Position numbers and translations under genes: made by a program. A stretch of 64,000 nt of DNA from an uncultured Dehalococcoidia bacterium (GTDB lineage Bacteria > Chloroflexota > Dehalococcoidia > Lucifugimonadales > CAJWUJ01): NCBI GenBank assembly GCA_913047625.1, contig CAJWUJ010000002.1:85848-149847 (forward strand), written 5' to 3'. The notes beneath the pieces are model-generated. The model worked only from the letters and a program-made list of their open reading frames with translations. It was not told the DNA's origin and ran no database searches. Each line of letters starts with the position of its first letter. Positions within the stretch are counted from its first letter, which is position 1. Positions 35,857 to 50,681 of this stretch are shown here, piece after piece.

Positions 35857-36225
35857 GTGACATGGACATATTCAAACACACATACTACCCTTTGGGAATT
35901 AGATTCTGTATTCTTTATAGCTGTTTCTGATTGTAAGGCTGTGATGGAAATATTGAGCAGGATGATCGAAGATTACGATGATATTGGTAATACGGTTGAT
36001 GAACTTGCTTCATTTTCTGACCCAAGAGAGCCTAACTGGGTCGACGAAAAAGGCCAGATTATTACGGACAAGGGTCCTCAAATGAATTTCGGCAAATACT
36101 CAGGATGCCTCGTATCTGAAGTCAATGATCGCGAATATCTTGAGTGGGTCTTAAGAGCTGATTTCGATGCTTCGGTCAAGGCTGTTATCAAGCAACACCA
36201 GAAAATTTTAACTAATGGAAGCTAA
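35857..36225 (+). pseudogene. C-terminal remnant of a DnaQ-like 3'-5' exonuclease
   Basis: AVSDCKAVMEIL (tail of the ExoIII motif), WVD..G, MNFGKYSG, YLEWVLRADF match the C-terminal half of such exonucleases. ExoI/II motifs are absent. Confidence 0.55.
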
Positions 36226-36336
36226 CGATTCACAAAACGTCGTTTAGGAACTACGATACTTCTTGTAGTTGGTAAGATATTGATCCTTGCTGTAGACTGG
36301 TAGCACCTTATTATTATCCGCGAAGGAGAAATTATC

Positions 36337-37203
36337 ATGGATGATGATCAAACCTTTTTGTTCCTGTTAGCTACCCTTTGGTTTGCGCAAGCGTTATGGG
36401 TGTTGTTTGACGTATCAGAAACTAAAAAACGCTTACCAGTAGCGATAGCATGGGGTCTGGGGTGTTTGGTACTGCCAGTCATTGGAATGATTGGGTATTT
36501 ATTGAAAAAACAAGACGATGTTGCTAAACCTGTAGGCAACATTGTTATGCGGCAATATTGGTTCACAGTGTCGTTTACTTTTTTAGCTATGCTGTTTGTG
36601 GGAGTGGCCCAAACAGGAAGTTCGGTACTGCAAATGGCTTTGGAAAACACGCCAGATAGATCGTTGGGAGTTCGAGAAGATTTAGCATGGAGCCTAGCTG
36701 TAGTTACAATAGCGTTGCCTGCCTGGCTGTTCCATTATATTCGTGCCCGAAGCTATCTTCGTAATTTGGTAAGCGATTATGAATTCCAGGCTACCTTTCT
36801 CATTAGAAAGACGATGCTTGTTGTAACGATGGGAATCTCCGGTTTTCTGGTTATTGGTATTTTGTTTTTCTATGTGTTTGCATTTTTCAGGACGCTCCTT
36901 GGAGTTTCAAATGTACCTGCTGCGGAATACGGAGGACCAATTGCATGGCTAGCCACTGCATCGTTTACCCTTGCTTTTGCATATCTTTTCGTTTACAGGG
37001 GTGCAGAATATAAAGCCTTAGCGAACCGATTTCTTCAAGTGGAAGATGCTCCGGAGGAGCCAGAGGTAGAATCATCATCAACTGAGGGTAATACTACGCA
37101 CACTTCAGTTTGTGGTTCATGCAAGTTATCAGTGGATCCCAGCGATAAATTCTGCGGAGCTCACGGTGTTCCTATTAGTGAGAGTCCGTGTTTATTTAAA
37201 TAG
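36337..37203 (+). CDS. Membrane protein with DUF5671-like segment and C-terminal zinc ribbon
   Basis: About 6 TM helices, LAWSLA...LPAWLFHY, CGSC...FCGAHG. SD GAAGGAG upstream. Confidence 0.6.
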   Translation: MDDDQTFLFLLATLWFAQALWVLFDVSETKKRLPVAIAWGLGCLVLPVIGMIGYLLKKQDDVAKPVGNIVMRQYWFTVSFTFLAMLFVGVAQTGSSVLQMALENTPDRSLGVREDLAWSLAVVTIALPAWLFHYIRARSYLRNLVSDYEFQATFLIRKTMLVVTMGISGFLVIGILFFYVFAFFRTLLGVSNVPAAEYGGPIAWLATASFTLAFAYLFVYRGAEYKALANRFLQVEDAPEEPEVESSSTEGNTTHTSVCGSCKLSVDPSDKFCGAHGVPISESPCLFK

Positions 37204-37227
37204 AAGGAGCTTTTTGCGAGGTTTGTT

Positions 37228-37626
37228 ATGAGTGTTAGTTTCGGTCATGTTCATGTTAAAAGCCCAAATCCTCACGAAACAGCCGCATGGTATATCGAAA
37301 TGCTGGATGCGGAGTACGTCGAAGAAATTGATGTGGATGGAGCACTGTTCGTCCGCATTCGTTTGGGAGGCGTAATGTGTAATGTTTCTAGTCCAGCTCC
37401 TGGGCAACATCTTAATGACTCAAGCATAGATCTTCGATATGGGCTGGAGCATTTTGGTTTACGAGTTGATGATATCGAGGTTGTGATTGCTAAAATGAAA
37501 CAAGCAGGAGTGCCTATTTTACAGGACATAAAAAAAACGACTTCTGGCAACCGTATCGCTTTTGTGCATGGACCTGATAACGTCATGATTGAGTTGAGTC
37601 AGTATCATGCTGGGTTTAAATCATAG
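37228..37626 (+). CDS. VOC (glyoxalase-like) family protein
   Basis: FGHVHV, GLEHFGLRVDD, FVHGPDNVMIEL. Confidence 0.9.
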   Translation: MSVSFGHVHVKSPNPHETAAWYIEMLDAEYVEEIDVDGALFVRIRLGGVMCNVSSPAPGQHLNDSSIDLRYGLEHFGLRVDDIEVVIAKMKQAGVPILQDIKKTTSGNRIAFVHGPDNVMIELSQYHAGFKS

Positions 37627-37631
37627 GATTG

Positions 37632-38255
37632 CTAGGTTGACGGACTACTGTTGATCTGGTTTGGTGTGTTTATACCGCCTGAGAGTACCAAAGACATTGC
37701 GGTTTGAACTGAGAGATCTGTGTCTCGAACTTCTTTCAATGGTAAGAGAGTCACAAATCCAGAGTTCGGTGTTGGTGCCGTTGGAATATAGACGATAGCG
37801 AACGGTTGATCCGCTTCATTCTTAGTGAGCCCAGTGAGGAATCCGATAGACCAAAGGCCTTTCCGTGGATGTTCAATCATAACAACTCTTTTAAACCCGG
37901 TAGTGCTACTGCCTGAAAAAGACTCAATAAGTAAACGTGCCGAAGAGTAAACTGCCCGTACTATTGGAGTTCGTAACAGAAGAGACTGTGAAAACTTAAT
38001 CACTTTTCGTCCCAAAATATTTGCGCTCAATAACCCTGCAAGGTAGATGAGTATGAACAGTGCAATTAATCCTAATCCCGGAATTTCTCTTCCTATGAGA
38101 CTATCAATAGTGGGTTTCAACACACCGTCGATAGCATCAAAGAGGATTTTCAGCAGCAGATAGGTTATTACTATGGGGATTAAGATGAAGAGTCCAGCAG
38201 CAAACACCTTTCGTAAATGTTTACTGCATTTTGATAACATATTTGTAATAATCAC
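37632..38255 (-). CDS. DUF502 family membrane protein
   Basis: AGLFILIPIVIT, PIVRAVY, YIPTAPTPNSGF, VLSGG. Confidence 0.9.
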   Translation of the reverse strand: MIITNMLSKCSKHLRKVFAAGLFILIPIVITYLLLKILFDAIDGVLKPTIDSLIGREIPGLGLIALFILIYLAGLLSANILGRKVIKFSQSLLLRTPIVRAVYSSARLLIESFSGSSTTGFKRVVMIEHPRKGLWSIGFLTGLTKNEADQPFAIVYIPTAPTPNSGFVTLLPLKEVRDTDLSVQTAMSLVLSGGINTPNQINSSPST

Positions 38256-38300
38256 AAGAAAGCCTTCGCTGGACGATATTGGTTTGGAAACTAGCCTAAG

Positions 38301-39143
38301 TTATGCAACGGGCATGGCGTGAGATACTCCGATCATACTATCTCTCGTTACTAATTTGGCAGCTTGGTCCTCTGAGAGACTTTCAACACCTTCAGGTATT
38401 TTGGGAATAACTAAGTAACGTACGTCTGCTGTGCTATCCACTACTCGCAGTTTTACCTGTTCATCTAGGGGTAATCCCATTTCTAAAAGTACCTGTCGAG
38501 GTTCGGCTACGACCCTTTGCCTATACACCATGCTCTTATACCATTCTGGTGGTTCTCCGAGGAGAGCTCTTGGATAACAGGAGCATAACGTACATACCAC
38601 CACATGATGGAGAGTAGGGGTGTTTTCTACTATGCGGAACTCCACATGCTCTTCCAGTGCTATGCCCATTTCACTGATAGCGGAACGAGCATCACTCAGA
38701 AGTCTGTTCTTGTAATCAATATCCAACCATGCTTTAGCCACAACACTGGCTCCGAGAGCGTGCGTGCGTTTTTCGTTGGTTGACACCTGGTCTTGAATTT
38801 CCTGATATGAGGTTATATTTTTAGCTACTAAAAGTGAAGCAAAGGCTCGTACAGCGTTTTCATAGGTTGAATGCTCTGGAATTTGCATAGTATCTATTTG
38901 CTCTTGAATTTCACTTTGCACAAGAACGTTTTTTTCCACGCAAATGGCAATCAATGCCCGAATGCGGTTTTCAAAGTATGGATCATAAGGCGTGTTAAAG
39001 TCCTCTATTGTTCTACGGACTTCGTCTGTAGTCAGGATACTCTGCCGCCGAAGAATTTCACTCAAGGCTATGGCTTGTTTGTCATATTGGGAAAGTTCGT
39101 GTTCGCTGGTATCGATGTATGGACCGTGGTGTACATTAGACAT
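38301..39143 (-). CDS. Cobalt nitrile hydratase alpha / thiocyanate hydrolase gamma subunit with fused N-terminal ScnB-like (beta) domain
   Basis: VVCTLCSCYPR metal motif, VVAKAW, PEWYKS, VTRDSMIGV. The first ~87 aa carry DEVRRTIE...YFE...VEK. Confidence 0.88.
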   Translation of the reverse strand: MSNVHHGPYIDTSEHELSQYDKQAIALSEILRRQSILTTDEVRRTIEDFNTPYDPYFENRIRALIAICVEKNVLVQSEIQEQIDTMQIPEHSTYENAVRAFASLLVAKNITSYQEIQDQVSTNEKRTHALGASVVAKAWLDIDYKNRLLSDARSAISEMGIALEEHVEFRIVENTPTLHHVVVCTLCSCYPRALLGEPPEWYKSMVYRQRVVAEPRQVLLEMGLPLDEQVKLRVVDSTADVRYLVIPKIPEGVESLSEDQAAKLVTRDSMIGVSHAMPVA

Positions 39144-39164
39144 ATTTGCGTACCTCTCAGGGAG

Positions 39165-39458
39165 TTATTTTTTTGGACCGGGACTTAACCAGTGTTCAAA
39201 GATATCCATCATTAGTTCATCCGAAGGCAAGATATCTTTGCTTATTTCCACGTCTGTATACTTGAAGAGAACAGAATAGAGTGTTTGTTCAGGAAGTCCA
39301 TTGTTTCCGTATGCAAGTTGCTCCGGATTCTTAAATTTACCATGAATTTTTTCGATTCGGCCTTCCTTTCCGTAGATATAGCTGGGAGTACGGTGGTGGT
39401 GAGTAACCTTGCGAGATTGAACTATTACAGTATCCCCGATTCCAAACTGTTGTCCCAT
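39165..39458 (-). CDS. SH3-like nitrile hydratase beta C-terminal / thiocyanate hydrolase alpha subunit
   Basis: FGIGDTV, HHRTPSYIYGKEG, NPEQLAYG, LYSVLF, DIFEHWL. SD GGAGG precedes ATG 39458; the ORF track starts at 39479. Confidence 0.88.
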   Translation of the reverse strand: MGQQFGIGDTVIVQSRKVTHHHRTPSYIYGKEGRIEKIHGKFKNPEQLAYGNNGLPEQTLYSVLFKYTDVEISKDILPSDELMMDIFEHWLSPGPKK

Positions 39459-39502
39459 ACAGTTGCCTCCAAATTTCATTGTACTAGAAAACCGGACATT
39501 TA

Positions 39503-39847
39503 TCAGTCAAAAATACTAAGAGGGAATGTGAGTTGAAGAAGGGGCCCTTCCTGATTCATTCCGTACACATCTGTATCTCCTGGACTTCCTGAAGGATAGT
39601 GTCTCTTGAGAGTTGCCTTTATAGCGTGCAAGCTGTCGATATGTTCGAGGACTACTACTTCGCTTTCACTGATGTTATATACTTCGGAAATAGTGCCCTT
39701 TGTTATTAAATTATTATCTTTGATTGCATAATAGCTAGAGGAATCCCGAAATATAATATCAAGGGTGATAAGAAAAGGACCTGCATTCTTACTTCTGATA
39801 ACAGAACAAAGATCTTCTAGATGTACATTATTGGAATCCGACATCAT
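39503..39847 (-). CDS. DUF4387 family protein
   Basis: IRSKNAGPFLITLDIIF, SGSPGDTDVYG. Confidence 0.88.
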   Translation of the reverse strand: MMSDSNNVHLEDLCSVIRSKNAGPFLITLDIIFRDSSSYYAIKDNNLITKGTISEVYNISESEVVVLEHIDSLHAIKATLKRHYPSGSPGDTDVYGMNQEGPLLQLTFPLSIFD

Positions 39848-41245
39848 TTAACCAGCCTGTGTTATTTTGATGTCAAAAAGCTCAAGCGGATCACTTATCG
39901 GCATCTGATGATAAATTGTAGTTTCGAAAGTTTCTCCGACATCGATAACATTTGGTGAAAATAAGTAACCTACATTTCCTGCGGTAGTGGTACGGTCTCG
40001 ATAACGAGAAAATGCTATTTTTAAGGATAAGTCTTCTGCGATGTCATGCGAGAGTTGCTGAGTTTCTGAGACAATATCAAGCACAATGCCGATTTCAGTA
40101 GGATGAGAAGAAAGAGGTTCTCGAAGCCCCAGAACAGCTCCTTTCCCATAAACATGATAACGGATAGAAAATTGGCCAGCGGTTTGAAAACTTGCTTCAG
40201 CACTACGCTTTTCTTGTGCTAGGATTTCATCTATCTGCTCTATCATTCGGTGATTTCGTGCTCCGAGAATTGCTATCGTCCTGTATCCTAAGAAAGACAC
40301 TCCTTCGAGTAAAACCGTATAAGCCTGCTCGGTGAATTTAGTTCCAGAGACTCTAACGGTGCTTGGTGTTTCTTGAGAAAAAACAGTTGCATGTTTTTCA
40401 AGAAGGCCACCAGGGAGTTCTACGATGGCATGTGACTCTCGTTCATACAGTGAATGGGCGGTCGCAGACTCTACGGAACAAATCATCCCAGGATGCCCGG
40501 GCTGAAGAGTAAAGTGATCATCATGCATAGTACCTACAATAGGAATTCTGTTAGGGCCCAAGACTTTTGTAACTCCTGTGGTATCCGTCAAGGCGGATTC
40601 ACCGCATTCCATGATATCGCCCATATGGATGGAGAGTCCTTTGTCAAACCCTAACATTACAGGATACGCACCGATTGCGCATGAATCTGCCGCTCTTCCT
40701 GCGAGCACAACCTGTGCCCCCTGCTGCAGCGTTTCTATGATCGGTTCGACCCCCATCATAGCCACTATAGTTCTCGCCTGTTCCACTTGTTCAGTAGTGA
40801 GTAAGTCACCGAGGAGGGTCGTTGGTACCTTTGGCATTTTTGTGCCTTTGAGAAGGGCGTTTTTTACGGTTTGTTTCTCGATATCTGAATAAATGGTGCC
40901 TACTGGAAAACTGATACTGTTTTCTTGGGCGATTTTCATTACAAGGTCAAGGGTGAAGTCAACGTGAGCATTCGCACCTGATCCTCCCGAAGAGCCAAGG
41001 ATAAAAGGGATACCTCGTTTATGTACTGCTTCCACGAGAATGATTTCCAAATCCCTTCGCAGATTTGTGAGTGGACTGTGCGGTTTGCCAGTTCCTAGAT
41101 ACCAAGGCCCGATGTCGAAAGATCCGCCGTCCACAGCGACAACGTCTGGTTTATTGGCGTCAAGCGCTTCAATAAATGCTTCTTTGAAGATGCCCCTATT
41201 TCCGATACATCCTGTCGGTGTTAAAACGGTTACCGTATTCATCAC
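39848..41245 (-). CDS. AtuA-like (DUF1446, acyclic terpene utilization family) protein
   Basis: DGGSFDIGPWYLG, GSSGGSG, VAMMGVEP, AGRAADS, ECG, HSLYE. Abuts the DUF4387 gene. Confidence 0.8.
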   Translation of the reverse strand: MMNTVTVLTPTGCIGNRGIFKEAFIEALDANKPDVVAVDGGSFDIGPWYLGTGKPHSPLTNLRRDLEIILVEAVHKRGIPFILGSSGGSGANAHVDFTLDLVMKIAQENSISFPVGTIYSDIEKQTVKNALLKGTKMPKVPTTLLGDLLTTEQVEQARTIVAMMGVEPIIETLQQGAQVVLAGRAADSCAIGAYPVMLGFDKGLSIHMGDIMECGESALTDTTGVTKVLGPNRIPIVGTMHDDHFTLQPGHPGMICSVESATAHSLYERESHAIVELPGGLLEKHATVFSQETPSTVRVSGTKFTEQAYTVLLEGVSFLGYRTIAILGARNHRMIEQIDEILAQEKRSAEASFQTAGQFSIRYHVYGKGAVLGLREPLSSHPTEIGIVLDIVSETQQLSHDIAEDLSLKIAFSRYRDRTTTAGNVGYLFSPNVIDVGETFETTIYHQMPISDPLELFDIKITQAG

Positions 41246-41250
41246 AGGCC

Positions 41251-41279
41251 AATATAGCGTGTCAGTCTAAGACCGTCAA
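41251..41279 (-). promoter_or_regulatory. Sigma70-type promoter giving a probably leaderless transcript
   Basis: On the minus strand TTGACG-17 nt-TATATT, ending 5 nt before GTGATG. No SD sequence. Confidence 0.6.
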
Positions 41280-41373
41280 AAGCAGTCTGCTCTCGGGACT
41301 TGATTTACGAGTATATCTTGGAAGTTAGGAAGAAAATCTGTATATTGTGGATATTGGTGGAGGATACGGTTTT

Positions 41374-42363
41374 ATGAATAGCAAAACTAAGATTCCAAAA
41401 GTGAAAGTACTAGCTACTGGTGGAACAATAGCCAATAAAATTGATAAAGATGTGGGAGGAGGGGTTCCAACCTTGACTGGTGAAGACTTGATTGAATCTA
41501 TACCAGATGTTGAAACTTTGGCGGATGTTCATGTCGAACAAGTACTGAATGTGGGGAGCCATTTGTTGTCTCCGAACGATATCTTGAAAGTTCGGAACAA
41601 ATGTAGAGAATCATTGAATGATGGGTTTGACGGCATAGTGGTAACGATTGGCACTGCAACAATGGCTGAGTATGCATATATGCTTTCTATCACCCTCGAT
41701 ACCGACAGACCTGTGGTGCTAACGGGTGCAATGAGGAATATCTCATTACTCGGTGCCGACGGAATCAGAAATCTGGCAGATGCTATTCGTCTCGCCGGAT
41801 CACGTCAAGAGTTCAATCTCGGAGTGGTTGTTTGTATGCAAGGTGAAATATTTCATCCGCATGACGTTAATAAAATTCATGCCCAGAAGACAGAAGCATT
41901 TGGTTCATCTTTTGGGCCGCTCGGGGTCATTTTACCAGGCAGAATTGTGATGTATCGTAAACCGTTAATGAATCAATATATACCAGTGGAATCATTGACT
42001 AAACGCGTAGAGATTATTGTTGCTGAAGAAGGGGGAGACGGCTCTCTTCTAGACTTTGCATCAGAGAAAGCGGATGGTCTTGTTTTAGTGGGATTTCCTC
42101 CTGGAAATGTTTCGCCGGGTATGAATAAAGCTATAGAAAAGGCATTGCTGCAGGGTGTCCCTATTGTTCTGGTTCATCGTGCAATAGGAGGGGTTTTGAA
42201 TCAAGGATTTCACTCTGATGGAGGACCTGAAGCGCAGTTATTGGGAGCAGGAGCCCTGCCGGGAGGAAGTCTTACAGCAGCTAAAGCTCGTCTGAAATTG
42301 ATGCTAGCATTGAGTTATACGCAAGACAAAGGTGAGTTACGGAAGTTATTTCAAAATTATTAG
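41374..42363 (+). CDS. Asparaginase/glutaminase family protein (divergent)
   Basis: ATGGTIA, PVVLTGAMR, DGIRNL, KARLKLMLAL. HGTDT is replaced by IGTAT. SD GGAGG precedes ATG 41374. Confidence 0.85.
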   Translation: MNSKTKIPKVKVLATGGTIANKIDKDVGGGVPTLTGEDLIESIPDVETLADVHVEQVLNVGSHLLSPNDILKVRNKCRESLNDGFDGIVVTIGTATMAEYAYMLSITLDTDRPVVLTGAMRNISLLGADGIRNLADAIRLAGSRQEFNLGVVVCMQGEIFHPHDVNKIHAQKTEAFGSSFGPLGVILPGRIVMYRKPLMNQYIPVESLTKRVEIIVAEEGGDGSLLDFASEKADGLVLVGFPPGNVSPGMNKAIEKALLQGVPIVLVHRAIGGVLNQGFHSDGGPEAQLLGAGALPGGSLTAAKARLKLMLALSYTQDKGELRKLFQNY

Positions 42364-43589
42364 TATGAACGTTGCTTGCTAAGAATTTCACTTGTTTGCT
42401 TCCGAAGTTCAGGCACCAATAAGAACACTAGAAGCCCTAAAAGTAAACCAGTGCCAGCGGAAATAGCCATGGCATTATTTGCGCCGATAAAACTGGCAAT
42501 TACTCCGACTTCAAGATTTCCTATCGACCAGGTTCCTTGTGCAAAAAGCATGGCCCCAACAGCGAATCCTTGCATTGATTTTGGCGGGAAGACTAGCATG
42601 AGGGTGAATTGCATGATGGCATATCCTGATAAAGCTAGCCCAGAAATACCTACAAATGCCAGGGCAACAAAATAATTGCTGGACAGAGAAAAGAGAAGAA
42701 TTGCGGTGCAAAATCCGAGCATTCCAAACAGGAAATAGCGTCCGTGATAGTTAATTTTGGGTCGACTAACAAAAACTAAGCAACCTATTAGTGCACCGAG
42801 TCCTTCAGCTGACACTAGCATACCGGCAAGTACTTGGCTAACATTAAGAGTTTCCTCTGCTATGACTGGGATGAACTGGGCGTAAGGAGCAATAAATGTA
42901 TTAAGAATTACACTTGCTAATAGAGCTCCGATAAGGTGTTTAGTGGTCAAAACATACTTGAGGGCACTTTTTATCGGTGGCTGGCTATTTTGCAGTTTTT
43001 CCTTGCTAGCAGGATCATGCACTACTTTCACAAAATATAGGAAAAAGAGTCCTAACAAGTAGAAAGTTGCTACCATTAAATACGCTTGACTGAGACCAAA
43101 CTGGACAGCAACAAAACCACCTGTGAAGGGACCAATAAACCTACCCCCAAAAAGAGCAACGAGGTCTAGGGACATCGCACCAGTGATTTGTTCCTGACCC
43201 ATAATGTCATGAGTCAACGGTCTTCTCGATGTGTAGTCTCCAGCCCAGCCGGTACCCATTACGAGAGTAACTGCCACGATCCACCATAACGACATAATGT
43301 CAGCTAGGAGGAATAATCCTGTAAGTAACATGCCAGAAAATTGAACTGCTTGTACCACTGTAAGCATTTTTTTTCTGTTGACTCGGTCAGCTATTCTTCC
43401 TAGAGGAATGCCGAGAATGGGTAGAGGTATAATTCTAAGGAATGTTGCTAAGCCAACCCAGAACACAGAGTCTGTGATATCGAGGACTAGCAGTGCAAGA
43501 AGAAATAACTCGGTCCATCGGGCGGTATACCAAAAGCATGCTGCTAGCCACAAAGCCCGATAATTTTGATTCGTAAGTGCATGAACCAT
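42360..43589 (-). CDS. MFS transporter
   Basis: About 12 TM segments, GRIADRVNRK. Confidence 0.92.
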   Translation of the reverse strand: MVHALTNQNYRALWLAACFWYTARWTELFLLALLVLDITDSVFWVGLATFLRIIPLPILGIPLGRIADRVNRKKMLTVVQAVQFSGMLLTGLFLLADIMSLWWIVAVTLVMGTGWAGDYTSRRPLTHDIMGQEQITGAMSLDLVALFGGRFIGPFTGGFVAVQFGLSQAYLMVATFYLLGLFFLYFVKVVHDPASKEKLQNSQPPIKSALKYVLTTKHLIGALLASVILNTFIAPYAQFIPVIAEETLNVSQVLAGMLVSAEGLGALIGCLVFVSRPKINYHGRYFLFGMLGFCTAILLFSLSSNYFVALAFVGISGLALSGYAIMQFTLMLVFPPKSMQGFAVGAMLFAQGTWSIGNLEVGVIASFIGANNAMAISAGTGLLLGLLVFLLVPELRKQTSEILSKQRSY

Positions 43590-43592
43590 GGC

Positions 43593-43955
43593 TTAGTCAG
43601 GATTCTTATCCAGAAATTTACTAAAGATATCATCTGTCTTTTTAGCCATGATAAAGTCATTTCGGTGCAGATTGCGGATTTTGTGGGTCCACCAGGAAAC
43701 GCTCACCTTGCCCCATTCCAGTATTATGCGCGGATGATGCCCTTGTTCTTCAGCAAGCGATGCGATTGCCATGGTGAAGTCAGTTGGTGCGGAAAATCCT
43801 TTGAAAGAAAATAAGCGAGTCAACTGAGGAACTTCCTTTTCGCTGGTTATTTCCCAGTCAGGTATTTCAGGGAGAAGGTTATTGATTTCTGCTTGAGTTA
43901 CCTTTGGGGAATCTGCTCTGCAGGCAACGCATTTCTCTGATCCTAGTTGTGACAT
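43593..43955 (-). CDS. phhB: Pterin-4-alpha-carbinolamine dehydratase
   Basis: AEEQGHHP, WWTHKI, LHRNDFIMAKK. Confidence 0.92.
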   Translation of the reverse strand: MSQLGSEKCVACRADSPKVTQAEINNLLPEIPDWEITSEKEVPQLTRLFSFKGFSAPTDFTMAIASLAEEQGHHPRIILEWGKVSVSWWTHKIRNLHRNDFIMAKKTDDIFSKFLDKNPD

Positions 43956-44088
43956 GTATATTCCTTTGTAGTATGGTGCGGAGGGAAGGCAACCAATTAC
44001 GAATGTTATTTATTTGTTCTGTCGAATAGCCTAGCTACCTATATACAATACTTTAGTCGATCGGGTCAACAAACCCTGAAAGGAGCTT

Positions 44089-44577
44089 ATGATCAAGTGG
44101 ATTAATCACACCTGCTTTATTGTGAAGGATCTTGAAAAGTCATTGGTTTTCTACCGTGATTTGTTAGGAATGACGGTTGAACGTGAAGAGTTTCGGGATC
44201 AGGGGTCTGCTGGATCGTTCGGCGCAGCTCTCTTTGGTCAAGAACAAGTTCGGTATAACATGGTCTACCTAGGTATTGGGGATATGAGACATTCAGTGGA
44301 ATTGGTGCAGTTTTTTGATCCTGTTCCAGAGCAGCTTGACCAGGGAAGGCCTGTCGATATTGGATCGGGTCATTTAGGAATCATAGTGGAGGACTTGGAT
44401 GACGTGTATGCTCGTTTATCAGCAGAGGGAGTAGAGTTTTTGACCCCTCCTCAGGTTCGTAATGACAAGCCAGCTTATCCTTGGGCAAGAAAAGGTGCAT
44501 TTGCTAAAGATCCCGATGGAAATTGGTTGGAATTCCTAGAACGTTCGGAGCCTACAGAGCAAACAAGCGTCGTTTAA
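44089..44577 (+). CDS. VOC family protein
   Basis: INHTCFIVKDLEKSLVFY, HLGIIVEDLD, DPDGNWLE. Confidence 0.9.
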   Translation: MIKWINHTCFIVKDLEKSLVFYRDLLGMTVEREEFRDQGSAGSFGAALFGQEQVRYNMVYLGIGDMRHSVELVQFFDPVPEQLDQGRPVDIGSGHLGIIVEDLDDVYARLSAEGVEFLTPPQVRNDKPAYPWARKGAFAKDPDGNWLEFLERSEPTEQTSVV

Positions 44578-44598
44578 TATCAGTAAGAAAGAGGTGAC

Positions 44599-45483
44599 TT
44601 GATGAGTACGTTACAACAATTCTCCTCAATAGAGGACATTATCCTGTCCCATCACGGTGAAGGCAGAAAAAAATCGATTGAAGGTATGGCTCAACTCAAA
44701 TCCCTCTTGCCGGCAGACTTCTGTCGGGATGCAGCTCGGTTTTTGTATGAATTACCCGGGTTGGTTATGGTGGTAACAGGTTTTTATGAGCCAGTTCCTC
44801 AAACAATTGAAACAGACGGACCTCCTGGGGCTATAGCAATCGGAAATGCGTTACGAAAACTTGGCCGGGAGGTGATATACATCAGCGACAAATATGCTGT
44901 TGATTACCTAAGGACGTTGGGAGGTGGAAGCGATGTTGTTGAATACCCTATTGCAGACCATGAGGACAGCCGCGATTTTGCATCGAATCTCCTGTCCACC
45001 TACAATCCAGCTGTAGTTGTTGGTATCGAACGCTGTAGTCTGACTGATGATGGTAACTATTACAACATGTCTTTTCAGAACTTGTCAGCATTTACAGCAA
45101 AGACGGATTATTTATTTACTCAGCATTCTCATACTATCGGTATAGGTGATGGCGGAAATGAAATTGGTATGGGTAATTTATATAATGCTATAGCCAGCAT
45201 TCCTTCATTGCCCAAAAAGCCTGCTGTAACAGGATCAACACACTTAATTATCTCTAGCGTTTCTAATTGGGCTGGCTACGGCCTAGCGGCGGCTTTGTCG
45301 CAGGTATCTGGGAAGGATGTCAGTACTAGTCGTATAGAGGCGGAGTCAGTAATAAATGCCATGATTGAACTAGGTGCAGTTGACGGTGAATTATTGGAAC
45401 CTATTCCATGGGTAGATGGGTTTTCACTGGATGAAAATTTAGAGATTGTTGATCAGTTGCTAGCATGTTCAAATACCATGTAG
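44599..45483 (+). CDS. D-glutamate cyclase-like (DUF4392) protein
   Basis: VTGF, ETDGPPGA, GIER, GIGDGGNEIGMG, SVSNWAGY. Confidence 0.85.
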   Translation: MMSTLQQFSSIEDIILSHHGEGRKKSIEGMAQLKSLLPADFCRDAARFLYELPGLVMVVTGFYEPVPQTIETDGPPGAIAIGNALRKLGREVIYISDKYAVDYLRTLGGGSDVVEYPIADHEDSRDFASNLLSTYNPAVVVGIERCSLTDDGNYYNMSFQNLSAFTAKTDYLFTQHSHTIGIGDGGNEIGMGNLYNAIASIPSLPKKPAVTGSTHLIISSVSNWAGYGLAAALSQVSGKDVSTSRIEAESVINAMIELGAVDGELLEPIPWVDGFSLDENLEIVDQLLACSNTM

Positions 45484-45557
45484 GATTCTACATCCAGGTT
45501 CGTAAATAAGGGTTCCTAAATAGAAGTATCAGTAAATTGGATTGAGAGGAGATAAAA

Positions 45558-46610
45558 ATGTCTGGAGAAGGATTAAAAGGGAAAGTTGTGACAGTATCAG
45601 GGCCGGTTGACAGCAATAAATTGGGAGTCACATTACCCCACGAACACTTTTTTTACGACAGTCGTTCTAGATTTGTGGAACCTGAAGATGAGATCGGTAA
45701 GGAGTACGCACATCAGTCGGTTACCTTGGAAAATGTAGGCTGGATCACTAAGAATTGGATTAATAATATTGACAATCTCGTGGTAGATGATGAAGCTGTG
45801 GCAATTACAGAAGCACAGCTGTTTAAGGATGTCGGAGGAGGTACGATTGTTGATGTGACCAATGTGGGTCAACCTCGCAATCCTGGGGCTCTTTGTCGTA
45901 TAGCGCAGGCTACCGGATTAGATATTGTGATGGGATCGGGATACTATTTCGGCTATTTTCATCCTGGGGATATGGATTCCCGTACAGAAGATGATATTAC
46001 TAAAGAAATTATTTCTGACCTAACTGTGGGTGTAGACGGTACTGGTGTCAAGGCCGGATTGATCGGTGAAGTTGGCTTCTCAACACCTTTTGATCCCAAT
46101 GAAATAAAATCTCTTCGTGCTAGTGTGGCAGCACAAAAGGAATGTGGCGTAGCACTATCTATTCATCCGGGGCCTGGTGCAGATTCGCCTTTCCAGATTA
46201 TTGATATGCTTGAGGAAGCTGGTGCAGATTTAAGTCGTGTGGTGATGGGTCACATTGAACGCTCATCTCTAGATATGGATGGAATTTTAAAAGTTGCGAG
46301 TCGTGGTTGCTATGTGGAATTTGACTGGTTTGGCACGTTAAATCCTGCATATCCGTATGGACCTGTTGATGTTCCCAGCGATAGTGTGCGAATCAAGCAG
46401 ATTAGGAAATTAATAGCGGAAGGCCATCTTGATCAGGTGTTGGTCTCACATGACGTGTGCTTTAAAATGAGAATGGCCTGTTACGGTGGTCCAGGGTATG
46501 CTCATATTTCCAAGTACGTGGTCCAATGGATGGATGAGATGGGTATCACCCCAGATGAGATAGAATCTCTGACCAAGGCAAATCCGCAAAGAATGCTGGC
46601 AGTCATCTAG
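45558..46610 (+). CDS. Phosphotriesterase-related (PHP-type) amidohydrolase
   Basis: TLPHEH, GGGTIVDVT, GLIGEVG, SIHP, MGH, VSHD, NPQRML. Confidence 0.92.
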   Translation: MSGEGLKGKVVTVSGPVDSNKLGVTLPHEHFFYDSRSRFVEPEDEIGKEYAHQSVTLENVGWITKNWINNIDNLVVDDEAVAITEAQLFKDVGGGTIVDVTNVGQPRNPGALCRIAQATGLDIVMGSGYYFGYFHPGDMDSRTEDDITKEIISDLTVGVDGTGVKAGLIGEVGFSTPFDPNEIKSLRASVAAQKECGVALSIHPGPGADSPFQIIDMLEEAGADLSRVVMGHIERSSLDMDGILKVASRGCYVEFDWFGTLNPAYPYGPVDVPSDSVRIKQIRKLIAEGHLDQVLVSHDVCFKMRMACYGGPGYAHISKYVVQWMDEMGITPDEIESLTKANPQRMLAVI

Positions 46611-46632
46611 CTCACCTAATATATACCGGCAA

Positions 46633-47061
46633 CTAGATTTTATTATGCTTCAGTGCTTCTAATCCCAGATAATATCCATAGACTCCAAATCCCCATATAA
46701 GCCCTTTACATACTGGATGGATGTGTGAGACTAAGCCTCGGGAACTAGGATTGGAAAAGTGGATTTCGATTACAGGGAAAGTCACTTGAGGGATAGCATT
46801 TTTTAGCGATGGAGCACCTGCTGTGTTTCCTGCGGGATTAATCAGTGCTCCATCGTACTTGTTTTCGTAAGCATCATAGAGTGCATTTACTAATTCCCCT
46901 TCAATGTTTGAATGGAATATGTGGACGTCGACATTTAAAGCAGTTCCATATCCCATAATTTCTTCGTTGATTTCTGGCAGAGTTTTGGTACCGAATAGTT
47001 CTATTTGCGATTTGCCACGCATGTTCATTCCTGCCCCTTGAAGGACTAATATCTTGGTCAT
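46633..47061 (-). CDS. aroQ: Type II 3-dehydroquinate dehydratase homologue (catalytic residues altered)
   Basis: SNIEGELV, INPAG, IEIHFSN, GFGVYGY. The N-terminal catalytic loop is divergent. Confidence 0.65.
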   Translation of the reverse strand: MTKILVLQGAGMNMRGKSQIELFGTKTLPEINEEIMGYGTALNVDVHIFHSNIEGELVNALYDAYENKYDGALINPAGNTAGAPSLKNAIPQVTFPVIEIHFSNPSSRGLVSHIHPVCKGLIWGFGVYGYYLGLEALKHNKI

Positions 47062-47205
47062 GATGTTCTCCTTGTTGCAACGTTCTATAGCGATTGTGCT
47101 TCTAGTATACCCGTAAATATTTCATCAGACAGACCCATTTGCTTTCTTCTCACACCTAAATAGCGTATAGTGATCCCTCAGATTGGATGCATTCCTAGTT
47201 GTCAA

Positions 47206-48198
47206 ATGAAATTAGATAGATACCTTATACCTTCTGTTATTGCTGGCGTCGTTGCTGGACTTGCTCTGGTGATTTCGCTTGTGGGGTTGTTTAGTACTGA
47301 AGGAAATTCTCCGGATCTGGAAGAAGCGTTTCTTGTTGATCTGCCGGAGGATTTTCGAGATCTATCACCTGAAGAAGTTGCGGAGCTTGCAGTAACCCTC
47401 GGAAGGCATCTCGACCGTCTTGATAAAGATATGGATGAATCTTCGAAGTTGCTCTCAGATCGTCTCAGAAAGCTAGAAGAAATTGTGGTATCACAGGAAG
47501 ATTGGACTCGTTGGAGGGATGATCTTCTTTCCATTACCCAGGACGCTGAAACCAACATAGAACGAACTCAATATTTGCTCGATAAGATCCCGCAAGTTTT
47601 CCGAACCACTTTCAGACGTCAGGGCACTGTCCAGTGGGAGGCCAATTGGGAGGGACGATTTACTCCTACCAGCAACTTAGGAAATCTGGATCTTATTACT
47701 GGTTATGACGAGTATAGTGGACCAATTTTTGATCCGGTTAGTGCAAGTGAGTATGAAGGAAGTCTGGGTCAAAGACGGACGGGTGACCAGTCTGATTACT
47801 GGAAAATGGATGAACTTCTTATTCCTTATTCATCCGAAATTGTTGAACAATCTTCTTCCTGTTATCCTGAGGTTCAAGGAAGTTGGGCGTACTCATTAGA
47901 TATCCCAGTAGCACAACAGCAATCCCTAGGATTAACAGACGAGGAATTAGCTTATTTTAATAAGGGAACCTATACCTCAACAAACGTGGTTGTAGCAAAC
48001 TATACTGATGTAAGGCAAGATACCCCAGCCAGATATGTTTTTAGCGGGATGGCACTCAACGTTTCTTATGCTCATATGTTGCTTACGGTTGCGCCTGTAG
48101 TTGACTTCTCAAATCCTGCTACACCATTTCCTGATTTCATGGATTCTATTGATGTCTTTTATCACGTGATCATGGTTTGTATTCGTGATGATCAATAG
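47206..48198 (+). CDS. Hypothetical membrane-anchored protein with coiled-coil
   Basis: N-terminal TM (VIAGVVAGLALVISLVGLF), heptad-like segment, unrecognised acidic C-terminal domain. The ORF track starts at 47170. Confidence 0.6.
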   Translation: MKLDRYLIPSVIAGVVAGLALVISLVGLFSTEGNSPDLEEAFLVDLPEDFRDLSPEEVAELAVTLGRHLDRLDKDMDESSKLLSDRLRKLEEIVVSQEDWTRWRDDLLSITQDAETNIERTQYLLDKIPQVFRTTFRRQGTVQWEANWEGRFTPTSNLGNLDLITGYDEYSGPIFDPVSASEYEGSLGQRRTGDQSDYWKMDELLIPYSSEIVEQSSSCYPEVQGSWAYSLDIPVAQQQSLGLTDEELAYFNKGTYTSTNVVVANYTDVRQDTPARYVFSGMALNVSYAHMLLTVAPVVDFSNPATPFPDFMDSIDVFYHVIMVCIRDDQ

Positions 48199-48200
48199 TA

Positions 48201-49241
48201 TTAAGGGGTCGTAATTCCATAGCGTGTCATCAGGGATGTAATGCTTTTCCAGGTAGCCTCTTCAACAAAAATTCCTTTATCCTTACGTTCTATGGTCGTC
48301 AAATATTCTAATTCTCCAGGGTAATACACCTTATTGCTGTTAGGGGCTAGAGGGGTTTCCTGGAGATATTCTGCGAAAGCAGTGATGTCTTTTGTAAATG
48401 ATTTAAGACTACGGAATGCTTCAACATTGATAGCCATAACGAAGCAACCATCATTATGGATGCCTTCAGGGTCTACACCGAACCCAAGACCAGTGAGAAT
48501 GCCCGATAAAACTTCTACTATAACCGAGAGACCGTAGCCTTTATATCCTTGGTCCCCTCCTATTGGAAGGATAGATCCTCCTAGGTCTAGATCATTCGGA
48601 TTGGTACTTGGACGACCGTTTTTATCAATAATCCATCCCAGGGGAATTGATTCTCCTCGTTGTTTTGCTAGGTCTACTTTGCCTTTAGCTACCGAAGCAG
48701 TAGCTAAATCAATACAAAACGGTCCTGGAAGATTACTTGGGAATGCCATGCACAATGGGTTGGTGCCTAAGCGGGACTCTTTGCCTCCGAACGGTACCAC
48801 ATTCTTGACGGTTCTTCCTGAGTCAGCGGTAATGAAACCTATCATCCCTTCTTGGGCAGCTGTTATAGAGTAAGTTGCTAACCGTCCTATATGACTTTGT
48901 TGGAACACTGAGATGATTCCAACATTTGACTCTTTGGCCTTCCTAATAGCCAGATCCATTGCTTGAGTGGTTATCACATAACCGAATCCCCAATGACCGT
49001 TAATTCGTGCGGTAGTAGAAGTTTCTTGAAGAATTTCTAGCGATGCGTCAGGTAAAATATGCCCCTTTTCGATCCTGTCGATGTAAACCAGTAGTTGGAT
49101 AATTCCATGGGAGTCATGCCCTGAAAGGTTTGCAGAAACAAGGTGCTCTGCAATTAGTTGTGCGTCCTCTTCCTTGACGCGATTGGCCACCAGCAGGCTG
49201 CGGCACACAGATTGGAGGTATTGATGTGAAAAAGTAGGCAT
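48201..49241 (-). CDS. Ldh_2 family (malate/L-lactate/ureidoglycolate dehydrogenase-like) oxidoreductase
   Basis: GHDSHG, HIGR, GTNP, GYKGYGL, YPGE. Confidence 0.9.
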   Translation of the reverse strand: MPTFSHQYLQSVCRSLLVANRVKEEDAQLIAEHLVSANLSGHDSHGIIQLLVYIDRIEKGHILPDASLEILQETSTTARINGHWGFGYVITTQAMDLAIRKAKESNVGIISVFQQSHIGRLATYSITAAQEGMIGFITADSGRTVKNVVPFGGKESRLGTNPLCMAFPSNLPGPFCIDLATASVAKGKVDLAKQRGESIPLGWIIDKNGRPSTNPNDLDLGGSILPIGGDQGYKGYGLSVIVEVLSGILTGLGFGVDPEGIHNDGCFVMAINVEAFRSLKSFTKDITAFAEYLQETPLAPNSNKVYYPGELEYLTTIERKDKGIFVEEATWKSITSLMTRYGITTP

Positions 49242-49247
49242 GTTTAC

Positions 49248-50681
49248 TCACGATATTGGAGGAAGATATTGTGTCCATGGCTGGGCCTCTTCGAAAGCAG
49301 CAGAGGCAGCTAGGACTGTCGACTCATCACCTTTCTTTCCGATGATGTGGAGACCGATAGGCATTCCTTCAGAAGAAAAACCACACGGTACTGTGGCTGC
49401 GGGGTGACCAATGGTATTAATAGGATGGCTGAAAGGCATAAAACCGTAGGGTGGGTTTGGATGAACCGGATGTCCTCCAATCGTCTCGGGAAATGTTCCC
49501 ACTGGAAATGCAGTAACTGGCATGGTAGGTGAAAGTAGTAGGTCAAACTGTTCAAATTCTTGGTTAAATTTAGCTATCATTTGTTCTCGATGACCAAGTG
49601 CCTTAGCATAATGTTCGGCTGTGACTTCGGCACCTGCTTCAAGTTTTGCCTGGTTATACCAGGTGAGGTCATCCTTATTGGTTTGTAGCAATGAACCCGA
49701 GTTGATGTGGGCGTGGGCAGTCCATATAGTCCACCATGTCTCGAAGGTCGCTTCCAGACTGAGATTTGATTCTTCGAGAGAACAGCCGAGTCCCTCAAAG
49801 ACATGTGAAGCCTTAATGGTAGCATTCAACACTTCAGGGTCTGAGTGGATATAACCATAATTAGAGGACCAGCCCAGTTTGAGGCCCTTAACACCTCTTT
49901 CAAGAGCTGCTAGGAAATTAGGTGGCGTTTCTCGCAGAGAACTGGGATCTCGAGGATCATAGCCTGCTAGTACTTGGAGCATCATTGCTGAGTCGTGAAC
50001 TGATCTTGATATTGGACCTTGCTGTCCGAGGAAGTTTGGAAGGTGTGTGCCAGGTACTCCCCCATAGCTGGGAACCCTGCCTTGGGAATTCTTGATTCCG
50101 TAGAGTCCACAAAAACTTCCGGGAATACGTATAGAGCCTCCTCCATCACCCGCAGTTGCCAAAGCACATAGTCCTGCAGCTATGGCAGAACCGCTGCCAC
50201 CACTGGATGCCCCTGAAGTCCGTTCCAGGTTCCAAGGGTTGCGACAGTGATCTCCTAGTTTGTTCTCATTCACTCCCAGCGCGCCGAATTCGGAGGTATT
50301 TGTTTTTCCTAGGATGATGACACCAGCCTTACGTAAACGTTCTACCACAATAGAATCTGCTTTGGGAACATTGTCTTTATATATCAGTGAGCCGAGTGTA
50401 GTTCGAATCCCTTGTGTTTTTTCAAGATCCTTTATCCCGATGGGAAGGCCATGAAGAGGTCCCAGGGCATCCCCTTTCATTACTGCGGTTTCAGCCTTCT
50501 TAGCAGACGCTAAGGCGTCCTCCTGATTTAGAGTCAGATAAGCATTAAGCTGAGAATCCAGCTGATCGATACGTTCCAGGTATACATTGGTGAGTTCAAT
50601 AGGCGATACTTGTTTTTGGCTTACCATTCGTGCTAATTTCCAGGCAGGAGTGAATGCGAGATCTTGATTCGTAGTTGACAT
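49248..50681 (-). CDS. Amidase signature family protein
   Basis: IGIKDL, GKTNTSEFG, GASSGGS, GDGGGSIRIP (Ser-cisSer-Lys triad). Confidence 0.93.
   Translation of the reverse strand: MSTTNQDLAFTPAWKLARMVSQKQVSPIELTNVYLERIDQLDSQLNAYLTLNQEDALASAKKAETAVMKGDALGPLHGLPIGIKDLEKTQGIRTTLGSLIYKDNVPKADSIVVERLRKAGVIILGKTNTSEFGALGVNENKLGDHCRNPWNLERTSGASSGGSGSAIAAGLCALATAGDGGGSIRIPGSFCGLYGIKNSQGRVPSYGGVPGTHLPNFLGQQGPISRSVHDSAMMLQVLAGYDPRDPSSLRETPPNFLAALERGVKGLKLGWSSNYGYIHSDPEVLNATIKASHVFEGLGCSLEESNLSLEATFETWWTIWTAHAHINSGSLLQTNKDDLTWYNQAKLEAGAEVTAEHYAKALGHREQMIAKFNQEFEQFDLLLSPTMPVTAFPVGTFPETIGGHPVHPNPPYGFMPFSHPINTIGHPAATVPCGFSSEGMPIGLHIIGKKGDESTVLAASAAFEEAQPWTQYLPPIS

Follow-up and report, generated by a model that had tools for sequence, protein, structure and literature searches.

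Organization of the locus

The window analysed here, i.e., the whole 64,000-nucleotide stretch of contig CAJWUJ010000002.1 from an uncultured Dehalococcoidia bacterium, carries two adjacent genes that probably encode a cobalt-type nitrile hydratase (NHase) of a new layout. Both lie on the minus strand: the C-terminal half of the beta subunit (beta-C) comes first, as a separate chain, followed 21 bp downstream by a gene in which the N-terminal half of the beta subunit (beta-N) is fused to a complete alpha subunit (betaN::alpha). Their features are as follows.

39165..39479, minus strand: beta-C gene, open reading frame (ORF) of 104 aa, likelier 39165..39458 and 97 aa; SH3-like C-terminal half of NHase beta as a separate chain
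38301..39143, minus strand: fused betaN::alpha gene, 280 aa; PF21006 followed by PF02979
38874..39143, minus strand: beta-N half of the fused protein, residues 1-90; from PF21006, TIGR03888, phmmer and alignment columns
38301..38873, minus strand: cobalt-type NHase alpha domain, residues 91-280 plus the stop codon; from PF02979, TIGR01323 and 1v29_A
38568..38594, minus strand: metal-binding motif C184-T-L-C187-S-C189, then Y-P-R192; read from the sequence and aligned to 1v29_A and 2dpp_A

The sole Pfam match of the beta-C ORF is NHase_beta_C (PF02211, 63.8 bits, residues 10-99). The ORF covers positions 137-225 of 226 in TIGR03888 (nitrile_beta), and residues 130-218 are aligned with it in PDB chain 3qxe_B (38 bits). 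An earlier, sequence-only reading of this DNA had taken 39165..39458 to encode only the C-terminal half of a beta chain, and the PF02211 and TIGR03888 matches bear this out. Translation may start at the ATG at 39479 (104 aa) or at the ATG at 39458, and the resulting 97-aa form is the likelier because GGAGG lies 7 nt upstream of the latter.

Residues 16-85 of the fused protein correspond to NHase_beta_N (PF21006, 25.1 bits, E 1.9e-5), and residues 18-85 align with residues 27-97 of Comamonas NHase beta; the stand-alone beta-N of a related locus (L005) also matches this domain, with 37.2 bits by phmmer. The alpha domain follows directly, with no His-rich linker in between, and residues 94-273 match NHase_alpha (PF02979) at 250.3 bits for a cut-off of 27.2. 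The succession of PF21006 and PF02979 agrees with the sequence-only reading of 38301..39143 as a beta-N half joined to a complete alpha chain, and the strings it quoted were located at residues 40-47 (DEVRRTIE), 56-58 (YFE) and 184-192 (CTLCSCYPR).

The CTLCSC motif, whose Thr marks cobalt-type enzymes, is invariant in all 16 aligned fused proteins, and an arginine (R192) replaces the Trp that follows CSCYP in the solved cobalt-type alpha chains 1v29_A and 2dpp_A. In the MAFFT alignment of the beta-N half, R43 is aligned with the Arg that is conserved in the DE-x-R motif, R44 being an additional Arg, while Y56 occupies the beta-Tyr68 column (first Tyr of YYxxW) and R60, within PYFENR, the beta-Trp72 column. 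The second conserved active-site Arg is held by the H-x-R-T-P motif of beta-C (H21 and R23 in the 97-aa numbering), whose residues H21, R23, T24 and P25 do not vary across the 11 aligned beta-C chains. The two conserved beta arginines and the beta tyrosine presumably support the oxidised cysteines, roles that we assume from established NHase structures. Elsewhere in the beta-C chain, the residue 71 column holds Glu (DVE) in the window protein versus Trp (xVW) in 10 of the 11 aligned chains, and the Tyr three columns further on has also been lost.

The assembly to which the window belongs (1.55 Mb, 42 contigs, 91% complete) contains one alpha, one beta-N and one beta-C NHase match, all of which correspond to these two genes.

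Reality and spread of the fusion

The betaN::alpha fusion is a genuine intact gene under purifying selection. The sequence-only reading had named a sequencing error as a possible cause of the fusion, an explanation that fails, as the ORF is intact in independent contigs and proteins and both domains show a low ratio of nonsynonymous to synonymous substitution rates (dN/dS, 0.07-0.09). The fused ORF is unbroken in five relatives (P0001-P0005) at 98, 86, 73, 52 and 49% identity, and in two metagenome contigs (L040, L041) retrieved by scanning metagenomes with an alignment of the N-terminal domain. Relative to L041, the beta-N part (residues 1-90) has a dN/dS of 0.088 and the alpha part (residues 91-280) one of 0.072, with synonymous sites near saturation (proportion of synonymous differences, pS, 0.49-0.56). 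What looks like a frame break in L003/L042 comes from a masked stretch of N. The arrangement is also kept: a beta-C tail lies directly upstream of the fused gene in L040, L041 and L042 (86% identity for the beta-C gene in L041), and a DUF502 gene downstream in L040 and L041.

A second group of fused proteins (P0017, P0025, P0087, P0094) is 315-331 aa long and contains a His-rich linker; fused relatives of both kinds, without and with this linker, make up 9 of 120 among the proteins listed. A profile-free search of 1.84 billion representatives at 50% identity gave 2545 matches at E<=0.001, and the best 150 of these, assigned to architecture classes with purpose-built small hidden Markov models, comprise 14 betaN::alpha proteins (the residue after CSCYP being Arg in 13 and Ile in 1), 15 proteins with beta-C before alpha, and 32 full beta::alpha fusions. 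Single chains that first appeared to combine beta-C, beta-N and alpha were rejected as such, their weak beta-N match being the N-terminal arm of alpha, and are betaC::alpha fusions. Five proteins of about 316 aa (P0144, P0153, P0156, P0164, P0165) likewise join beta-C to alpha via a His-rich linker, as a mirror image of the window's fusion.

A word-based search with residues 1-92 found P0001-P0003 alone, and a contig scan of the genome collection matched one near-identical contig. Of the other genomes sampled, 51 of 400 from the class and 217 of 399 from the order have an NHase alpha match, and the same fused form is present among these sampled genomes in G733 only, on the near-identical contig.

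Identity of the N-terminal domain

The N-terminal domain of the fused chain might be an NHase activator rather than a beta half, as described for an alpha-activator fusion in the halophilic archaeon A07HB70 (PMC11573777, citing Guo et al. 2024). Activators are homologues of beta N-halves, with cross-matches between the two, and in the three-subunit NHase of Streptomyces canus, which has no activator, the beta-N subunit AnhD plays both roles, serving also as swapping and metal chaperone (PMC7329996). Moreover, two related His-linker betaN::alpha fusions (L058, L059) have no beta-C gene within 1.5 kb. Such an identity is nevertheless quite improbable for the window protein, whose residues 1-92 match nitrile_beta (16.7 bits) and give no nitrile_acc match, in a comparison in which the controls separate as expected: all three annotated activators score higher on nitrile_acc, and nitrile_beta is the better-scoring model for both canonical beta N-halves and all three stand-alone beta-N proteins. 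The grouping with P14K-like activators, which the sequence-only reading had named as a refutation, was thus not found. The activator explanation also has to face the beta-C gene 21 bp upstream and its retention in L041, the lone 108-aa beta-C frame found on another contig in G798, and a structural model (see below) that places residues 38-47 against beta-C. Because beta-C adjoins and the genome has no other beta-N match, the predicted beta-N half of the fused protein must supply the N-terminal half of the enzyme's beta subunit.

The activator family TIGR03889 has no match at E<=1 in the window's own genome (91% complete), which extends to the genome scale the earlier observation that no activator gene is adjacent. 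This absence fits with the ability of a beta-N half to act as a chaperone, as AnhD does.

Relatives and gene orders

A quick tree of alpha sequences (midpoint root; branch support by the Shimodaira-Hasegawa-like approximate likelihood ratio test, SH-aLRT), drawn without the characterised three-subunit enzymes, groups the window protein and P0001-P0005 in a clade of six fused proteins (SH-aLRT 96). Alphas with Trp after CSCYP and their close kin form one 28-row clade (25 W, 2 A, 1 F; SH-aLRT 99) that takes in the Rhodococcus, Parageobacillus and Halalkalicoccus references and excludes the window protein, whose own clade is placed among the rows with R, T or I at this position. The His-linker fusions P0017, P0025 and P0094 constitute a separate clade (SH-aLRT 98).

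A clear division is visible in the gene orders of related loci. Among 29 related loci (L005-L033), 22 carry CSCYPW and 2 CSCYPA, with beta, where detected, in one long reading frame, and five carry beta-N and beta-C as distinct genes ahead of alpha: L005, L006 and L007 (R), L010 (G) and L022 (Q). Among ten others (L043-L052), the six of the T type (L045, L048-52) are split likewise, and the four of the I type with CSCYPI (L043, L044, L046, L047) have a permuted ORF consisting of beta-C and a truncated beta-N, a stop, and then alpha. Trp after CSCYP is therefore absent from 11 of 11 three-gene split-beta loci and from 4 of 4 permuted loci. The 24 other loci of L005-L033 are of the W/A type. The window's order of beta-C, beta-N and alpha is that of the permuted group, but with a different junction fused.

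The permuted loci (1114..2352 in L043, 892..2352 in L046, 1132..2337 in L047, 1480..2674 in L044) come from genomes G493, G460, G413 and G746, of the same order and of family f102; their beta is circularly permuted, its beta-N part ends soon after DESRR, and alpha follows the stop in the same frame. One split locus (L006, 1702..2281, minus strand, genome G158) contains two tandem beta-N paralogues (DEHRR, DEGRR) before beta-C and alpha.

A probable nitrile hydratase rather than a thiocyanate hydrolase

The sequence-only reading had labelled the locus as thiocyanate-hydrolase-type, i.e., as a two-chain enzyme related to thiocyanate hydrolase (SCNase), which would convert SCN- into carbonyl sulfide (COS) and NH3 in a cationic pocket. 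Several features speak for it: the CSCYPR motif is common to the window protein and to the solved SCNase gamma chain, SCNase beta is also split (chains of 126 and 157 aa), adjacent arginines occur in beta-N, and a further Arg stands in the Trp72 column. The Thiobacillus thioparus gamma chain 2dd4_C, as seen via alignments of plasmid scnC loci from Roseomonas and Azospirillum, reads CTLCSCYPRPILG, which confirms the Arg after CSCYP that the sequence-only reading had given for this enzyme.

Profile and structure comparisons, in contrast, favour NHase. The alpha domain scores 233.8 bits against TIGR01323 (nitrile_alph) versus 171.6 against TIGR03887 (thiocyan_alph, SCNase gamma), far from the cut-off of the latter (291.45), and its best PDB matches are cobalt-type NHase alpha chains, with 184.8 bits for 1v29_A versus 144.5 for 2dd4_C, a chain that plasmid scnC genes match at 358 bits. 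The 2dd4_C match spans 189 residues versus 178 in the query, the longer loop of SCNase gamma being missing from the window protein, as is the N-terminal extension of SCNase-type beta, in which HDVGG begins at residue 44 (the equivalent His is residue 5 here). In the alpha tree, SCNase gamma does not fall with the window's clade but on a long branch of its own (1.85), weakly joined to the Rhizobium three-subunit alpha, possibly as a long-branch artefact.

The arginines are probably also less telling than they appeared. In the 119 nearest homologues with an intact CSCYP motif, the following residue is R in 68, T in 50 and I in 1, and CSCYPR occurs together with EEKRR in beta-N in plasmid three-subunit loci of Rhizobium and Microvirga terrae (order betaC-alpha-betaN) and of Streptomyces sp. 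(order betaN-betaC-alpha). Being so common in the nearest homologues and in three-subunit NHase loci, Arg after CSCYP is not diagnostic of SCNase. The RR pair recurs in the split or permuted beta-N of the Dehalococcoidia examined, whether alpha has R, T or I, with the exceptions of L010 (RQ) and L022 (RI). SCNase beta (2dd4_B) reads AEERRRKQN, with R90-R91-R92 where the window protein has R43-R44, and in the MAFFT alignment its additional Arg precedes the conserved Arg, whereas that of the window protein follows it. Counterparts of the three arginines claimed for the anion pocket may be present as R192 and R43-R44; no paper on the pocket arginines of SCNase was found in the literature searched. 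A COS hydrolase, a search for which had been suggested, was sought through PF00484 (beta-carbonic-anhydrase/COS-hydrolase family), to which we take this enzyme to belong: no match was obtained at E<=0.01 in the window's own genome (91% complete), versus matches in 9 of 14 control genomes.

The label of a thiocyanate-hydrolase-type enzyme is thus not supported. The lower SCNase scores, the generality of CSCYPR, the missing beta extension and gamma loop, and the lack of PF00484 matches make thiocyanate hydrolysis highly improbable as the activity of this enzyme. The description in terms of two chains (beta-C and betaN::alpha) stands.

Model of the complex and possible mode of action

A model of the complex between the 280-aa and 97-aa chains reached an interface score (ipSAE) of 0.90 versus 0.01 for the best control; 58 of 80 solved complexes attained this mark, as did 2 of 110 mismatched pairs. 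At least 93% of contacts are shared between runs, and the partner chain has a predicted local distance difference test (pLDDT) value of at least 89. Since NHase alpha-beta complexes are solved, this result may reflect likeness to them; the model supports binding of the two chains and does not show it. In the modelled interface, beta-C residues 21 and 23-25 contact alpha residues 185-186, and beta-N residues 38-47 contact beta-C. Both R43 and R44 are among the residues in contact with the beta-C chain, which suggests for the RR pair a role in the contact between the two beta halves rather than with the substrate.

The observed domain make-up, conserved catalytic residues, purifying selection, adjacency of the two genes and clade membership argue, with good probability, for a functional cobalt-type NHase that belongs to the split-beta ("three-subunit") lineage without activator and in which two chains take the place of three. 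Its predicted assembly, cobalt use and activity would be the following. The 97-aa beta-C would pack on the 280-aa betaN::alpha chain to restore the standard alpha-beta protomer; in alpha, the CTLCSC loop would bind Co(III) via oxidised cysteines, held by R43 of the beta-N part and R23 of beta-C; and a nitrile would be hydrated to its amide, from which one of the many amidases of this genome may then free ammonium. By analogy with AnhD of S. canus, the fused beta-N part would probably replace the missing activator in cobalt loading. A promoter and terminator scan returned 4 promoter-like sites, versus a mean of 7.5 in shuffled sequences, and no terminator between the genes, an uninformative outcome.

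Pocket residues, neighbouring genes and candidate substrates

What could the substrate be? The residues of the beta-N half provide a first indication. Y68 and W72 are described as residues of the substrate-binding pocket (PMC7193024). Arg occupies the beta-Trp72 column in 5 of 5 fused-clade members, where Trp is retained by the split relatives, by SCNase beta and by canonical beta (MAFFT). Judging from these aligned columns, R60 together with R192 would make the pocket more cationic than in relatives, and the presence of Arg in each of these positions (alpha-Trp and beta-Trp72) makes a polar or anionic nitrile likelier as substrate than a hydrophobic one.

The genes flanking the NHase pair are listed below.

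39503..39847, minus strand: CmlB homologue, DUF4387, possibly in the same operon; PF14330 113.6 bits, 9erq_B 66.5 bits
39848..41245, minus strand: CmlA homologue, AtuA family, possibly in the same operon; PF07287 60.5 bits, 9erq_A 291.8 bits over residues 2-463
41347..42363, plus strand: divergent amidohydrolase of the L-asparaginase/glutaminase family; PF00710 177.1 bits, PF17763 81.4 bits
37632..38255, minus strand: DUF502 membrane protein, 45 bp downstream of the fused gene; PF04367 94.1 bits

The AtuA-family gene abuts the DUF4387 gene on the same strand, and the latter ends 23-44 bp before the start of beta-C. Chains A and B of PDB entries 9erq/9evf are named citramalate lyase subunit A (cmlA) and subunit B (cmlB) by their depositors; a literature search found no paper on DUF4387 or on a citramalate lyase with AtuA, and the name of the enzyme is that of the PDB depositors only. 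The cmlAB-like pair recurs with other neighbours in G586 (64% identity) and G667 (36%), its surroundings being different in loci L073 and L074, and the split-beta NHase loci L036-L039 have none of the window's neighbour genes. As they are not conserved with NHase elsewhere, the neighbours say little about the substrate. The wider window encodes an amidase, a phosphotriesterase-family hydrolase, a D-glutamate-cyclase-like protein, an Ldh_2-family dehydrogenase and two major facilitator superfamily transporters.

The genome of 1.55 Mb has 11 matches to the amidase signature PF01425, one of them at 49311..50597 (minus strand) of the window; a luciferase-like gene lies in the stretch around it, and the whole suggests a repertoire for scavenging amides and lactams.

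A refinement of the NHase assignment would have the enzyme hydrate an anionic, carboxylate-bearing nitrile within a local pathway, from nitrile acid to amide acid, then, through the adjacent asparaginase-family enzyme or an amidase, to dicarboxylate and ammonium, followed by cleavage of the dicarboxylate by the co-oriented CmlA/CmlB-like lyase. It would account for the Arg that stands in place of Trp after CSCYP, for the Arg in the beta-Trp72 column of all five fused-clade members, where split relatives, SCNase and canonical beta have Trp, for the same-strand upstream genes homologous to chains A and B of 9erq, and for the adjacent divergent asparaginase gene. However, the cmlAB-like pair has neither NHase nor asparaginase next to it in G586 and G667, the genes flanking the split-beta relatives are different ones, CSCYPR is also found in Microvirga and Streptomyces three-subunit loci, the characterised enzymes of these genera take neutral nitriles (PMC7329996; PMC11573777), and the name "citramalate lyase" comes from the PDB depositors alone. 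We regard this refinement as unlikely. In its most specific form, a multi-arginine pocket (alpha R192, beta R60 and R44) would accommodate a carboxylate-bearing nitrile such as beta-cyanoalanine or a cyano-hydroxy acid, in one marine pathway with the CmlA/CmlB-like lyase and the asparaginase, with the fused beta-N acting as cobalt chaperone; this combination is a speculative and rather improbable one.

The assignment as a functional cobalt-type NHase itself has several points to contend with. The equivalog cut-off of TIGR01323 (249.85) is narrowly missed at 233.8 bits; the beta-N domain is divergent (16.7 bits for nitrile_beta, 16.6 for nitrile_alph, and E 0.033 versus PDB); beta-C is without a Trp present in 10 of the 11 aligned chains; the genes next to NHase differ in other lineages, and so say little on the substrate; and the placement beside the S. 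canus, S. rimosus and M. flocculans enzymes was made by plasmid loci of the same genus and gene order, and not by the sequences of these enzymes themselves.

Novelty and broader implications

The window enzyme represents a new architectural layout of a known kind of enzyme. Three-subunit NHases have been published (PMC7329996; PMC11573777; PMC13243292), and a review presents six NHase gene organisations, none of which is betaN::alpha (PMC7193024). No description of an enzyme made of beta-C and betaN::alpha was found in the literature searched, in which the coverage of subscription journals is limited. The betaN::alpha layout is one of several undescribed ones, with betaC::alpha and permuted betaC-betaN, that are frequent among uncultured Chloroflexota of marine type.

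NHases hold a major place among industrial catalysts, and their engineering is limited by the need for a separate activator and for well-matched subunits. A betaN::alpha fusion maintained by selection, together with a small separate beta-C and no activator, would point to another route of assembly and cobalt loading, and the Arg-for-Trp changes offer two simple mutational tests of the determinants of charge preference in the family. With NHase alpha in about half of the sampled genomes of the order, and 11 amidases in a 1.55-Mb genome, nitrile and amide turnover may represent a sizeable and little-studied use of dissolved organic nitrogen.

Comparison with known systems

The closest counterparts are the three-subunit enzymes AnhD-AnhE-AnhA of S. 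canus CGMCC 13662 and ToyJKL of S. rimosus, in which beta is split into an N-half and a C-half, as here, alpha is of the cobalt type with CTLCSC, no activator gene is present, and the beta-N half serves as chaperone (PMC7329996). A Streptomyces plasmid locus of the same gene order as AnhDEA has a CSCYPR alpha and an EEKRR beta-N, like the window; the likeness to S. canus, S. rimosus and M. flocculans rests on such plasmid loci of the same genus and gene order. The window differs in that its beta-N is fused to the N-terminus of alpha, giving two chains and not three, in its order (betaC, betaN::alpha versus betaN-betaC-alpha in AnhDEA), and in the Arg instead of Trp in the beta-Trp72 column. 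Of the two beta halves that exist as separate polypeptides in split-beta enzymes, beta-C is separate here, and beta-N is part of the 280-aa fused ORF.

In the plasmid-borne NHase of M. flocculans CGMCC 1.16731, two beta genes flank alpha, so that beta is split, and the substrate is the neutral nitrile flonicamid (PMC11573777); taken together, the S. canus and M. flocculans three-subunit enzymes hydrate neutral nitriles, namely acetamiprid, thiacloprid, benzonitrile and flonicamid (PMC7329996; PMC11573777). The Microvirga terrae and Rhizobium plasmid loci (betaC-alpha-betaN) have a CSCYPR alpha, the Rhizobium one being the best plasmid match, with 50.5% identity to the window alpha. Unlike these loci, the window is fused and has a different gene order, and the aquaporin and cobalt-transporter genes that adjoin them are not among the window flanks scanned (35857..50597). 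In the Rhizobium and Microvirga plasmids (L057, 1128..2414; L075, 1111..2462; L076, 772..2097), the helical beta-N is annotated as "SH3-like domain-containing protein"; the aquaporin adjoins in L057 and L076, and the cobalt transporter is CbtB in L057 and HoxN/NiCoT in L075 and L076. Ensifer adhaerens PnhA, considered as a further three-subunit example, was rejected, the paper describing alpha, beta and activator.

ScnABC of T. thioparus (2dd4) shares with the window a split beta, a cobalt-type gamma with CSCYPR and an Arg-rich beta N-half. It differs by lower sequence scores, by chains that are all separate, by a beta extension of about 40 residues, and by the Trp kept in the Trp72 column of its beta. 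In two plasmid loci of Roseomonas and Azospirillum (L034, 2532..4181; L035, 2539..4181), scnC is paired with an unsplit, beta-like "SH3-like domain-containing protein" of 283 aa, with cobalt-transporter and TauE/SafE genes nearby, so the SCNase family is not always three-subunit.

Fusions between NHase subunits are known in other forms. In the eukaryote Monosiga brevicollis, a whole beta is joined to alpha through a His-rich linker, and no activator is known (PMC7193024; PMC11573777), and in the archaeon A07HB70 mentioned above, alpha is fused with the activator. In contrast with both, the window joins only the N-terminal half of beta to alpha, with no His linker, and keeps beta-C as a separate gene.

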